From Bdellovibrionales bacterium (lineage in GTDB: Bacteria > Bdellovibrionota > UBA1018 > CAIMNF01), in the NCBI GenBank assembly GCA_040380025.1, contig JBEIJY010000024.1, forward strand, positions 1-39,223: a DNA stretch of 39,223 nucleotides, written 5' to 3'. The notes under the pieces are model-generated. The model worked only from the letters and a program-made list of their open reading frames with translations. It had not been told where the DNA came from and ran no database searches. Shown in pieces: positions 10,323 to 19,365 of this stretch. Position 1 is the stretch's first letter. Each line of letters begins with the position of its first letter. The position numbers and the translations under genes are program-made.

Positions 10323-10521
10323 GAACTGCCCCCTTTCATTGTTCTTGGAAAGGGGAGGGATCGGGAGAAGCCATTGGGAACATTCGGTTTTTGCCGACTC
10401 TCGCGAGCGCGTGACGCGCGAAAGCGAGGCCGCAGGACGCGGCATGGAGGTAAAAACCGAATGTTCCCACTGGTTTCTCCCGATCCCTCTGATAGAAAAG
10501 CACAATGAAAGGGTGCAATTT
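10323..10521. repeat. ~200-bp nested inverted-repeat element (MITE/REPIN-like), copy 1
   Basis: Outer IR GAACTGCCCCCTTTCATTGT / ACAATGAAAGGGTGCAATTT; inner ~41-bp IR 10355-10395 / 10449-10489; core shared with copy 2. Confidence 0.85.
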
Positions 10522-10860
10522 ATGAAAAATGAACTCGTGATTACTGATGTCGTCCCCGGAACCGGAAAACAAGCCGTCAAAGGCGCCCTCGTCTCGGTCC
10601 ACTACGAAGGAACCCTCGAAAACGGATCCGTCTTCGATTCTTCGCATGTCCGCGGACGCCCCATCGAATTCGTGCTGGGTACGGGCCGGGTCATCAAGGG
10701 CTGGGATCAGGGGCTCATGGGAATGAAAGTCGGCGGCAAACGCACGCTGTTCATTCCTGCTCACCTTGCTTACGGGGAGCGCGCGATCGGAAGCATTCCC
10801 CCGAACTCGAATCTGAACTTCACGGTCGAGCTTCTTGAAGTCCGCACTCGCGACGAGTGA
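10522..10860 (+). CDS. FKBP-type peptidyl-prolyl cis-trans isomerase
   Basis: VSVHYEGTL..G.VFDSS, VIKGWDQGL.GMKVGGKR.L.IP.HLAYG and IPPNSNLNF.VELL; true start is ATG 10522. Confidence 0.95.
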   Translation: MKNELVITDVVPGTGKQAVKGALVSVHYEGTLENGSVFDSSHVRGRPIEFVLGTGRVIKGWDQGLMGMKVGGKRTLFIPAHLAYGERAIGSIPPNSNLNFTVELLEVRTRDE

Positions 10861-12447
10861 TCAGAATCCCGAGTATTCCTGGTACTCGCCGTACACCTTC
10901 CGGAGCTCGTCCGAGATCTCTCCGAGGGTGCACTCGCTCTTCACACATTCATAAATGCGGGCCATGAGGTTTCCCTCGCCCTTCGCCGAATCCGAAAGCG
11001 CGCGCAGGGAGTCTTGCGCCTTCCCGCCCGATCGCTTGGCCTTGTAGGCGCGAATCCGCTCGACTGCTTTTGTCTCGAGCTCGGCCGGGACCTTCATGAT
11101 CTCGATCTTCTTCGCGCCGTTGCCGGTTTCTTGGTAGGTGTTCACGCCGACGATTCCGAGCTCTTTCGCATCGATGCGCTTTTGATCCTCATAGGCGGAG
11201 TTCAAAATCTCGGTCTGAATATAGCCCGATTCGATGCACGCAACAGTACCGCCCCTTCGCTCGATTTCGGCCAGGTACTTCCAGACTTCTTCTTCGATTG
11301 TGGCGGTCAACGACTCGACAAAGTAACTGCCGGCCATCGGGTCGACGGTTTGGGTGACCATGGTTTCAGAGGCGATCACCTGCTGGGTCCGGAGCGCAAG
11401 AAGCGCTGCCGATTCGCTCGGAAGCGCAAGCGCCTCGTCCATCGAGTTCGTGTGAAGGGATTGGGTTCCGCCCAGAACCGAGGCCAAGGCCTGGATCGCC
11501 ACCCGGACGACGTTGTTTTCGGGTTGTTGCGCGGTCAGGGTTGATCCCGCCGTTTGGGAGTGGAACCGGAGCATCATCGAGCGGGGATCTTTTGCCTGGA
11601 ACCGCTCCTTCATGATTTTCGCCCAGATCCGGCGTGCGGCCCGGAACTTCGCGATCTCTTCGAAGAAATCATTGTGCACGTTGAAGAAAAAGCTCAACTG
11701 CCCTGCGAACGCATCGACATCGAGGCCCGCCTTCACCGCCGAATCGACATAGGCGATCGCATCGGCGAAGGTAAAGGCCAGTTCTTGGGTCGCGCTCGAG
11801 CCGGCCTCGCGGATGTGGTAGCCCGAGATCGAGATCGGATTCCACTTGGGCGTGTTCTTCGAGCACCACTCGAACATGTCGGTGATGATCCGAAGCGCGC
11901 CCTTCGGCGGATAAATGTAGTTTCCGCGCGCGATGTATTCCTTCAGCACATCGTTCTGAACGGTGCCGCGAAGCTCGCGGGCCTGTGCGCCTTGCTCTTC
12001 TGCGAGCGCGACATAGAATGAGAGCAAAATCGGTGCGGTCGCATTGATGGTCATCGAGGTCGAAACATCGGCAAGCGGGATTCCCCGAAACAGCGTGCGC
12101 ATCTCGTCCAAGGTCGAGACCGAAACACCAACCTTGCCCACCTCGCCCTTCGAGCGGGCGTGATCGGGGTCGTAGCCCAGCTGGGTCGGAAGATCAAACG
12201 CCACCGAGAGTCCCATGGTCCCTTGCGAGAGCAGGTAGTGATACCGCTGGTTTGACTCTTCGGCCGTCCCGAAGCCCGCATACTGGCGCATGGTCCAGAG
12301 GCGGCCCCGGTACATGGTCTTTTGGACCCCCCGGGTGAAGGGGTACTGGCCAGGAACGCCAAGGCGATCCTGGAGGTCCGCGGGGAGGTCCCCGGGTCCG
12401 TAAAACTCTTTCACGGGAATGCGAGAGCGGGTGGTGAAGGTTTTCAT
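10861..12447 (-). CDS. Methylmalonyl-CoA mutase, substrate-binding (large) subunit without a fused B12-binding domain
   Basis: [18 protein letters not shown] (Tyr specificity residue), [34 protein letters not shown] and QSLHTNS.DEAL. Start at ATG 12447; the longer ORF call overlaps guaB. Confidence 0.93.
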
Positions 12448-12600
12448 GTGCGGGGGATCGTATGCGATAGGGCGGGTAAAGACAACTTTGGCGCGGGAAA
12501 GGCGGGGTATTTTGCGTCTATTTCTTTCATTTACGGAAAATTGTTGTTTAAATTTGTCCAGTTTTATGCTACTCTTCCCGCAAAATTCCAAGGAGCCTGA

Positions 12601-14085
12601 ATGCACATTCCTTCCGAAGCCCTGACATTTGATGATGTTCTCCTCTTGCCGGGATACTCGGAGGTTCTTCCTTCGCAGGTCTCGACCCGGAGCCGGCTCA
12701 CCAAAAAGATCGAGCTTCATATTCCCATGCTCTCGGCCGCGATGGACACCGTCACCGAGAGCAAGGCCGCGATCGTCATGGCCCAAGAGGGCGGACTCGG
12801 CGTCATTCATAAAAACCTGACCGTGCAAGAGCAGGCCTTTGAAGTCGAAAAAGTGAAAAAAAGCGAGTGGGGGATGATCCTGGACCCCATCACGATCGAT
12901 CCGGACGCGCCGATCGCCAAGGCGAATGAGCTCATGTCGGTGTACAAGATCTCGGGAATCCCCGTCACGGTTCCGGCCGGCGCGGCCCAAAAGCTCGTCG
13001 GAATCATTACGAATCGGGACCTGCGCTTCGAGGATGACTTCTCGATCCCGGTGAGAGCGCGCATGACGAAAGCGCCCCTGATCACCGCGCCCGAGGGCAC
13101 CACGATCGAAGAGGCAAAGAGGATCCTCCGGGAGCACCGGATTGAAAAGCTCCCCGTGATTTCGGCCCAAGGCGAGCTGAAGGGCCTGATCACGATCAAA
13201 GACATCAAAAAGCAAAAGGCTTATCCCCACGCAAACAAGGACCGCTACGGTCGTCTGGTGGTCGGAGCGGCCACCGGAGTCGGAGAAGAGGGCCTTCGCC
13301 GAGCGGATGCGCTCGTTGAGGCGGGCGCCGACATTCTGTGCGTGGATTCGGCCCACGGACACTCCCGCGGAGTGCTCGAGGCAGTCAAACGCTTCAAGGA
13401 TCGCTATGGCGATCGAATCGAGATCATCGGCGGAAACGTCGCGACCCGCGACGGGACCTTGGCCCTCATTGAGGCCGGAGCGGATGCCGTGAAAGTCGGA
13501 ATCGGCCCGGGATCGATCTGCACGACCCGGGTGGTGACCGGAGTGGGCGTTCCCCAGCTGTTTGCGATCTCGGAATGCGCGCGCGCCGCCCGCGAGCGCG
13601 GGATCTCGATCATCGCCGATGGCGGAATCCGCCTCTCGGGAGATGTCTCAAAAGCTCTGGCCTGCGGAGCGAGCGCCGTGATGATCGGATCATTGTTTGC
13701 CGGAACCGACGAGTCGCCGGGAGAGATTCTTCATTATCAGGGACGTTCCTTCAAAGTGTACCGCGGCATGGGTTCGCTCGGAGCCATGGGGCAGGCGCAA
13801 GGTTCGAAGGATCGGTATTTTCAGTCGAATGTGGACGAGGTCGGGAAGCTGGTTCCCGAAGGAATCGAGGGCCGCGTGCCATATCGCGGAAGCCTCTCGT
13901 TCAATATTCACCAGATGATCGGCGGACTCCGCGCGGGCATGGGGTATGTGGGTGCCGAGACGATTCCCGCTCTCTGGGAAAAATCACGATTTGTCCGGAT
14001 CACGAATTCGGGCCTTGCCGAATCCCACCCGCACGATGTGGTCGTGACCAAGGAGGCTCCGAATTACCGGATGAGCACCTCATGA
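12601..14085 (+). CDS. guaB: IMP dehydrogenase with CBS domains
   Basis: [44 protein letters not shown] and VPEGIEGRV motifs. Confidence 0.97.
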
Positions 14086-18299: not shown

Positions 18300-18394
18300 A
18301 ATGGCTTACTGTGAATCGCCCGAGCTTGATGATGCTCTTCTAATTGAAACAGCGCCATCCAAGGCGGGTCGCTTCATTCCTGCCCGCATTTTCT

Positions 18395-19108
18395 TCAGAG
18401 AACACAGACTTCTTCTTGAAGCGCGCGAGAAATCTTCAGTCTCTCGACCACCTGGAATTCGCGGATCCGCTGCCTCACCAACTCATAGGCGGCCCCCGAG
18501 TTCACCCCGTCGGTGTTCCGGTTCCAGTAGTCAACGGCATCGCTATGGCTCATTCCGCAAAATTGAATGAGCGAAATCGCCGCCATGTACCCCGAGGCAT
18601 GCCAGCCGTTCCAACAGTGCAGGTACAGTCCTCCCCGGGTTTTACCGGTCAGGTGATCGCGCACAAGCTCGAGCACTTTCTCGTCCTCGCCCGCGGCGAA
18701 GCGAAGGTTATGGTAGCGGAGTTTGGAGGCTTCTCCGCTCCGGAGCCTGCATGGGACTTCTTTGGGCGCGCTCGAGAAATTCGTGGGGTAAAGGTAGTTC
18801 GCATCGGTGATGCCCTCTTCGCACAAGTTCCGAAGCGCATCTTCCTGGAGCGGGTTGTTGTTCCCGCGCGGGTGATCGCGGTGGTAGACATTGTTCGCGC
18901 CCCCTCGGAGCACATTTTTGAACACAATCCGTGCGTTCCGGACCCCGTACAGGCGCTCCTCGCCCTGTCCCCGGTTGTTCACAATCTTGGTGTACCGATC
19001 GCGGACCCCGTAGCGGGCCGGATAGTCCGGAATGGCCTGCGCCGAGGCAAAGCTCCATGCGAACGAAAAACCAGATGCCAACGAAAGAAAAAGTAGAACT
19101 TTCCCCAC
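18395..19108 (-). CDS. Secreted protein-tyrosine-phosphatase-like protein
   Basis: Signal peptide (AQA-I); VLRGG and LYLHCWNGWHASG P-loop-like motif. Start reassigned to GTG 19108 because the longer ORF runs through the repeat element. Confidence 0.7.
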   Translation of the reverse strand: MGKVLLFLSLASGFSFAWSFASAQAIPDYPARYGVRDRYTKIVNNRGQGEERLYGVRNARIVFKNVLRGGANNVYHRDHPRGNNNPLQEDALRNLCEEGITDANYLYPTNFSSAPKEVPCRLRSGEASKLRYHNLRFAAGEDEKVLELVRDHLTGKTRGGLYLHCWNGWHASGYMAAISLIQFCGMSHSDAVDYWNRNTDGVNSGAAYELVRQRIREFQVVERLKISRALQEEVCVL

Positions 19109-19164
19109 GGGATTCGGATTAAACCGGTTCGACGAACTTGTAAATGATCGCTTCGGACAAGTCT

Positions 19165-19365
19165 GAACTGCTCCCTTTGAGTGTTCTTGATCCGTACCGT
19201 GTTTCGGGAAAGGGGCTGGGAAAGAAAAAGGTTTTGCCGACTCTCGCGAGCCAGGATGGCGAAAGCGAGGCCGGAGGACCCGGCTCGGAGGCAAAAACCT
19301 TTTTCTTTCCCAGTCCCTTTCCCGAAACACAGTGCTGTTTCAAACACAATCAAAGGGCGCAGTTC
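19165..19365. repeat. ~200-bp nested inverted-repeat element, copy 2
   Basis: Outer IR GAACTGCTCCCTTTGAGTGT / ACAATCAAAGGGCGCAGTTC; inner ~40-bp IR 19199-19238 / 19290-19330; core TTTTGCCGACTCTCGCGAGC..GCGAAAGCGAGGCCG identical to copy 1. Confidence 0.85.

Follow-up and report, generated by a model that had tools for sequence, protein, structure and literature searches.

A MITE of an unclassified IS1-like element with a TwoAYGGAY-like tip and a possible role of this tip in the inverted copying of flanking DNA

Two hairpin copies in the window and their family in the genome

The window considered here is a 39,223-nucleotide stretch from a Bdellovibrionales bacterium (contig JBEIJY010000024.1, assembly GCA_040380025.1) that contains two copies of a palindromic element, very probably a MITE, a miniature inverted-repeat transposable element. 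The first copy (201 bp, 10322-10522, plus strand) lies between the stop codon of a biotin-carrier gene (10313-10315) and the start codon of an FKBP gene (ATG, 10522-10524). It is bounded by terminal inverted repeats, the left at 10322-10346 on the plus strand and the right at 10498-10522 on the minus strand, with the final base of the latter being the A of the FKBP start codon. The inner left arm (10358-10392, plus) has its partner at about 10452-10488, and the two enclose a conserved two-hairpin tip (10393-10451, plus) in which GGA is absent from the first loop and present in the second. The second copy (203 bp, 19164-19366, plus strand) has terminal repeats at 19164-19188 (plus) and 19342-19366 (minus), an inner left arm at 19196-19235 (plus) that is 95% complementary to 19294-19333, and a conserved tip at 19236-19292 (plus) with GGA in both loops. 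Its right end lies 3 bp from the stop codon of a hypothetical open reading frame (ORF; 19370-19825, minus strand); this ORF has no family and no match in five relatives, and is uncertain as a neighbour.

A preliminary description of the window had already reported the two hairpins, and their places are borne out with the ends refined as above; the outer repeats, inner arms and covarying tip stems quoted there are all present in the sequence. The same description saw no target duplication, which does not hold. Copy 2 is flanked by a 9-bp direct repeat matching at 7/9 (19155-19163 and 19367-19375) and copy 1 by a worn one matching at 5/9 (10313-10321 and 10523-10531), the left half of which starts with the upstream stop codon. 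Both copies fold far more stably than shuffled sequences (z -14.4 and -14.0; 0/200 shuffles as stable), and no promoter- or terminator-like site was found at copy 1.

The genome holding the window (G000, 2.35 Mb; the labels G, L and C denote genomes, loci and contigs of this analysis) had been predicted to carry many copies, and it does. BLAST followed by three rounds of nhmmer with the central 60-66 bp returned 90, 91 and 91 matches and a covariance-model search 86, giving about 90 copies, a lower bound as the tip is present at 36 of the 106 contig ends of G000. The working set of 92 matches (E 1e-3 or better) counts two extended tips twice and includes two weak partial matches. Forty copies are full, with both 25-bp terminal repeats, and most of them measure 199-206 bp; a 25-bp terminal-repeat profile built from 64 ends yields 47 paired elements. 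When duplication lengths of 2 to 13 bp were scanned genome-wide, 9 bp alone stood above shuffled pairings. A 9-bp duplication at 7/9 or better flanks nine of the 40 full copies (four at 9/9, two at 8/9, three at 7/9), compared to a chance level of 0.4% of mismatched pairings. In 12 of the 40 full copies (2 expected), for example G000:C3:81894-82096, the flanks form inverted repeats beyond the terminal repeats, and some of these may represent palindromic targets.

The partner transposase and mobilization of the MITE

Terminal repeats located away from tips lead to a 307-residue transposase with a zinc finger and a helix-turn-helix (HTH) motif, encoded at G000:C5:100091-101011. It has a full MITE on each side and its stop codon lies within a MITE repeat; a second copy on contig C12 is 61% identical and has the same layout. 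Both form MITE-transposase-MITE composite units (G000:C5:99901-101245, L013; G000:C12:43756-45072, L012), and in both the final residues of the transposase are encoded by the MITE terminal repeat. In addition, six ends of the insertion sequence (IS), three left and three right, lie at contig edges, are 97-98% alike and open with the MITE terminal sequence. The earlier remark that no transposase is nearby is correct inside the window, but one with matching ends is present on other contigs.

Members of the IS1 family are about 1 kb long, encode a zinc finger, an HTH motif and a DDE-type fold, and have 20-28-bp terminal repeats and a 9-bp target duplication; the DDE triad has Glu as its third residue. 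The partner shares the zinc finger (conserved Cys pairs in the alignment), the HTH motif, the RNase H-type DDE fold, the size, the terminal repeats and the duplication length, but scores below the model cut-off, carries Asp-Asp-Asn and has ends that open with a variable dinucleotide. NCBIfam transpos_IS1 (NF033558) gives 37.5 and 41.4 bits compared to a cut-off of 100 (E 2e-9), and Pfam DDE_Tnp_IS1 (PF03400) matches none of 31 family members. The protein-atlas neighbours of the transposase are Bdellovibrionota transposase clusters with DDE_Tnp_IS1 as nearest Pfam family (0.93), and its closest homologues come from records titled Bdellovibrionales and relatives. A predicted structure (pLDDT 84) matches DDE transposases (ISCth4) and integrases; a single-sequence prediction was uninformative (pLDDT 42). 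D134, D213 and N259 are invariant in 31 homologues, and N259 probably occupies the third catalytic position, with Asn instead of Glu.

Among 41 related genomes, the transposase is found in 16 and the tip, counted by covariance model, in 14; across the phylum the tip is found in 8 of 141. All four genomes with at least 20 tips contain the IS; in five (G003, G004, G005, G012 and G040) tips occur but no IS match, and in seven the IS occurs but no tips. The MITE repeats of G002, G010 and G013 are unlike those of G000, and in each case follow the IS ends of their own genome. Because its ends match the MITE ends in G000 and in relatives, the IS1-like transposase is the likely mobilizer, and judged by sequence it likely moves the MITE in trans. 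No Mutator (PF00872), reverse transcriptase (PF00078) or IS4-type DDE (PF01609) protein was found in G000, other transposase families not having been searched, and the IS-end pattern has no match in metagenomes. At L088 (G024:C17), an IS copy with a perfect 9-bp duplication is directly followed by the start of a second copy in tandem.

The reading of the hairpins as a MITE that belongs to an unclassified IS1-like element has good support and is, in our judgement, very likely. The MITE class itself is ordinary: according to the accessible text of PMC3184786, bacterial MITEs such as Correia/NEMIS, RUP and Pseudomonas R0/R2 are likewise short, lack an ORF of their own and carry the terminal repeats of a resident IS, and they share the target duplication, the long-stem folding and the extension of gene 3' ends. 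Unlike the MITEs described there, the present family has as partner an IS1-like lineage that is unclassified and carries Asn as third catalytic residue, holds a conserved tip within fast-changing self-complementary arms and is placed strongly behind stop codons. In open-access literature, mostly listings and abstracts, neither this MITE family nor stop-codon-adjacent insertion of IS1-like elements nor the mirroring of gene ends was found described. For the family this agrees with the suggestion that the element is possibly undescribed, but its tip distantly resembles TwoAYGGAY, a catalogued motif.

Several observations weigh against this assignment. Clear duplications are missing from 31 of the 40 full copies, which may be explained by worn sites, adjacent deletions or misjoins through the near-identical tip; adjacent deletions are known for IS1. 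Unitigs break in the tip, some joins through it may be assembly chimeras, and the arms do not match in about 6 of 50 copies. The third catalytic residue is Asn rather than Glu, and transposase activity is only predicted. Furthermore, none of the five relatives compared carries the element behind the biotin-carrier gene, though the next gene differs there, and four DNA sequencing runs compared with the window contained no joint across either copy and no strain-level empty site. No RNA run was listed as containing the window.

The preliminary description had called the hairpins MITE- or REPIN-like. The MITE part is upheld by the terminal repeats, the 9-bp duplication and the DDE-fold transposase with the same ends; the proposed check for such a transposase led to the IS1-like protein, and the RAYT/HUH route was not borne out. 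REPINs have conserved palindromes at their ends and a variable centre, whereas the conserved part is central here. Movement as a single-strand unit of REPIN type, by a Y1/HUH (RAYT) transposase, would agree with the long hairpin and with one Y1-like gene of G000 that is followed by a tip-less MITE remnant. However, the 9-bp duplication, the IS-matching ends, the lack of a tip at any of 30 Y1-transposase loci and the absence of strand bias argue against it, as does the G000 Y1 protein, which apparently has neither the first His nor the catalytic Tyr. The explanation is largely refuted and highly improbable. The gene in question is Y1/IS200-like (G000:C13:34583-35285, L001) and the flanks of its MITE remnant are inverted repeats; solitary Y1-like genes akin to it occur in 25 of the 41 relatives.

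The two-hairpin tip

The tip spans about 60 bp and folds into a three-way junction that carries two short hairpins together with two tandem-GA loops. Its covariation is strong: across 40 tips, taken from the window and from relatives, both sides have changed in 18 of 25 base pairs, a level reached by 0/500 shuffles in a test that is inflated by kinship among the tips. Controls with slid pairing are 30-42% paired, compared to 88% for the true tip pairing.

TwoAYGGAY (Rfam RF01731, clan CL00106) is a widespread motif of unexplained function, described in the accessible parts of PMC2864571 and PMC4333381 as two hairpins on a basal stem with tandem GAs and a poorly conserved outer stem. A 2026 preprint (bioRxiv 10.64898/2026.09.22.753630) reports, in its accessible part, copy-number variation and divergent doublets, and calls the mechanism of spread unresolved. 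The present tip has the same layout, a common basal stem carrying two hairpins with tandem GA, and a variable copy number. AYGGAY in both loops is absent from MITE tips and occurs in exact form only in the G000:C26 tip and in some distant tips. The tip differs from TwoAYGGAY in that its best relatives reach 28-34 bits compared to a cut-off of 43, and in its loops, which are mostly 5 nt long and in some cases lack GGA. The Rfam check of the window copies yielded generic hairpin models and nothing relevant, with no match to RF01731; within G000 nothing exceeds 43 bits, and the single match is C26 at 30.1 bits. Of the metagenome loci described below, eight were compared with Rfam and three of these gave sub-threshold TwoAYGGAY matches (27.8-33.6 bits), with generic long-hairpin models scoring higher. 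Because the layout fits the published descriptions and the scores stay under the threshold, the tip is here called TwoAYGGAY-like and not a member. The accessible TwoAYGGAY literature (PMC2864571, PMC4333381 and the 2026 preprint) makes no mention of a transposase, of a target duplication or of mirrored host gene ends.

The tip is more widespread than the MITE. A 21-nt tip pattern found 17 metagenome loci. In 12 of these, long unrelated arms have the tip at their apex and no MITE ends; the other five (L164, L169, L172, L177 and L180) lack the tip-plus-arm layout and are excluded from arm counts. The pattern has no match in viral contigs or in plasmids. Eight metagenome tips on five loci (L166, L168, L170, L173 and L178) are 91% alike, and their arms are 0.88-1.0 self-complementary with a between-copy likeness of 0.52 (shuffled 0.46, sd 0.07). 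Old G000 copies with decayed ends likewise have tips 98% and arms 70% like their nearest neighbour. Close tip pairs, few in number, are divergent in four of five cases, the fifth being one extended tip counted twice. Together with the five genomes that have tips and no IS, these findings would suit a tip that is a mobile unit of its own, inserted 25-70 bp past gene ends by some enzyme, with an inverted duplication written once and one copy captured by the IS. No enzyme is linked to the tip, however: the 30 Y1 loci lack it, reverse transcriptase, Mutator and IS4-type proteins were not found in G000, and no gene is common to the neighbourhoods of the four extended tips. In addition, the mirrors described below track later spacer divergence, which points to repeated and not single copying, and we regard an independent unit of this kind as unlikely. 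The extended tips themselves (130-150 nt, three genomes) have extra hairpins inside the first hairpin and lie at G000:C40:2400-2546 and 12640-12787, L212 and L213.

As to function, our preferred guess is a protein-binding signal formed by a folded single strand of RNA or DNA; CsrA is the sole named candidate. A hammerhead ribozyme requires an invariant catalytic core and cleavage triplet. The tip resembles it in the three-way layout and the GA/GAAA loop, but two core bases differ, five bases are extra and the triplet varies, so this candidate was rejected; Rfam gave no hammerhead match in the window copies. Dispersed branched palindromes are also known as bcr1 of Bacillus cereus (PMC3184786) and BRE of Betaproteobacteria (PMC3110155). 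In the accessible text, bcr1 also keeps a cruciform-like fold with compensatory changes, but has a 5-bp duplication, and neither has a named IS partner. BRE sequences compared by eye, as far as they are given in the accessible part of PMC3110155, share no evident motif with the tip, and a likeness to BRE was rejected.

Paired arms and inverted copies of gene ends

In 31 pairs of close copies, 87 mirrored changes are found in the arms compared to 21 expected under independent change. Pairing of the inner arms is 0.90 in copies with an intact tip (n=31) and 0.57 in those with a decayed tip (n=9), whereas pairing of the terminal repeats is the same in both. The preliminary description considered selection for structure as one possibility, which covers part of the arm covariation only, as the arms include inverted ends of host genes and thus point to copying.

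Tips without MITE ends lie antisense, just past host gene ends, and their right arm often enters the opposite-strand 3' end of the gene, with the left arm being the inverted copy. The ends mirrored in this way belong to five tRNA species (Ser, Leu, Trp, Pro and Arg) and to valS. In relatives, mirrors are seen for tRNA-Ser at L009, L099 and L216, for tRNA-Leu at L114 (26 nt exact, 10 of them tRNA), for tRNA-Trp at L104 and, in worn form, for tRNA-Pro at L006 and L007. The last codons of valS are mirrored at L151 and L152; the ValS C-terminus is also conserved where the element is absent, in ten relatives that include G000. Spacers at the tRNA-Ser site are 41-44% alike between two lineages, yet each is 72-76% alike to its own mirror, so mirroring was renewed there. 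Counted over 47 distant tips, the right arm contains the end of a long ORF in 16 cases and the left arm in 3, and in no case is it the left arm only (13 vs 0, p 2e-4). This count uses unvalidated ORFs, and related genomes are not independent, which counts against the interpretation below.

The G000:C26 tip, which the Rfam model had picked out independently, proved to follow this rule once it had been formed. It is a divergent tip that lies antisense behind a tRNA-Arg gene and has two exact AYGGAY loops; the tRNA is on the right, and in the far (left) arm 17 nt from its 3' end are copied exactly. At the same locus (G000:C26:3376-3700), 25 nt are inserted between the mirrored tRNA end and the mirrored spacer. 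In several cases the tRNA mirror ends close to the T loop. Directly left of the arm at L007 (1300-1420) lies another branched palindrome, like tRNA-associated repeats.

From these patterns, polar mirroring driven by the tip appears to be the most economical reading of the arms. The element would then be an IS1-like-mobilized MITE built around a TwoAYGGAY-like tip that drives polar inverted copying of flanking DNA, an explanation that we consider moderately probable. The resident transposase with the same ends would move the MITE in trans and make the 9-bp duplication. The tip would cause the DNA on its 3' side to be written, inverted, over that on its 5' side, possibly by polymerase template switching at the folded tip, and repeated copying would keep the arms paired while they drift. 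The MITE may go back to a tip that inserted within the IS right end, where it mirrored the terminal repeat. At L022, arm-tip-arm lies within an IS right end, as would be expected from the making of a MITE by a tip through mirroring of a terminal repeat. In quasi-palindrome correction by template switching, as described in the accessible part of PMC5941160, mirrored changes also arise in both arms without selection; that process concerns short repeats and has no dedicated trigger, whereas pairing here tracks an intact tip and the copy is one-sided.

Other findings count against tip-driven mirroring. Isolated mismatches on the tip plus strand are G.T in 67 and A.C in 32 cases (p 6e-4; 136 of 189 stems scored), which shows that folding of one strand also matters and weighs against pure copying, because neutral copying does not predict it. 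The arms keep a recurring unpaired middle (median 0.62) that simple copying leaves unexplained, replication-strand bias is absent (32:31), and MITE copies have no orientation bias to gene ends (38/75 vs 28/69, p 0.24). Selection on a folded strand could likewise give paired arms and their loss upon tip decay. The tip of L022 is weak (14.4 bits, E 0.075). Since MITE repeats are about equally near both IS ends (right 17.1/25, left 16.4/25), the case for birth from the right end comes from L022 and C5 only.

The excess of G.T and the lack of replication-strand bias would both fit an ordinary IS1-like MITE with a structured RNA, either a TwoAYGGAY-type CsrA sponge or a transcript-stabilizing stem, in which stem selection and ordinary quasi-palindrome correction pair the arms. 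Template switching perfects inverted repeats generally, according to the accessible text of PMC5941160, and that of PMC4333381 proposes CsrA binding for TwoAYGGAY; for the present tip, CsrA is a candidate binder. GGA is found in both loops of 46/50 tips of G002, G010 and G013 and of 35/73 in G000, 39 of 41 genomes carry csrA, and tips persist at orthologous sites (tRNA-Ser, valS). However, 14 of the 73 G000 tips have GGA in neither loop, and csrA is near-universal compared to tips in 14 of 41 genomes and apparently lies in a csrA-fliW-like flagellar setting. Other mismatches (93) are as tolerated as G.T plus A.C (99), and stem selection leaves the same-side copying of tRNA and valS ends unexplained. 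We therefore consider this RNA-based account rather doubtful.

A bolder form of tip-driven mirroring, which we put forward only tentatively as a possibility, is that the TwoAYGGAY-like tip is a self-mirroring selfish module that lodges antisense behind gene 3' ends, repeatedly copies the adjacent 30-100 bases, with tRNA and protein gene ends, in inverted form to its other side and makes new MITEs from IS ends by giving them a second terminal repeat. If true, this would provide a birth route for MITEs and a DNA-level reason for the sequence-free long stems of TwoAYGGAY elements. Polar inverted copies of gene ends would also mean that near-perfect covariation in long bacterial stems can stem from DNA copying and is not proof of selection on RNA. 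Apart from this, one lineage of TwoAYGGAY look-alikes now has a named vehicle, an IS1-like transposase with a 9-bp duplication, which makes its mobility testable.

Placement behind stop codons and other features of the window

The placement of the MITE was analysed with genes called by codon usage in G000 (2019 genes, 87% coding). Among the 47 paired elements, 43 have genes on both sides, and seven in divergent gaps were left out. The null model assumes uniform insertion into viable positions and ignores promoters and terminators. In co-oriented gaps, 17/22 elements end at most 12 bp from a stop codon or supply the stop (16% under uniform insertion), and in convergent gaps 11/14 do so (38%). 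Without genes that read into the element, the numbers are 11/16 (p 3e-6) and 8/11 (p 0.02). Given this limit of the null, part of the placement may be due to selection. Of 27 complete IS copies found in other genomes, 19 have one end at -17 to +6 of the stop of a long ORF, a count that has no null and in which several stops come from the repeat itself, and one IS end lies 4 bp past a tRNA-Met. The partner IS, with Asn for the catalytic Glu and insertions close to gene 3' ends, is an unclassified lineage.

Just right of copy 2, window positions 19412-19448 contain five base differences from the best-matching DNA run. A Tad/Flp pilus-like cluster occupies 25093-39074 (RcpC, secretin, ATPase, T2SSF and FHA/TPR proteins) and includes several short prepilin-like repeats at 31952-32476. 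Within its FHA/TPR gene, 12-bp and 24-bp tandem coding repeats are found at 29289-29446.

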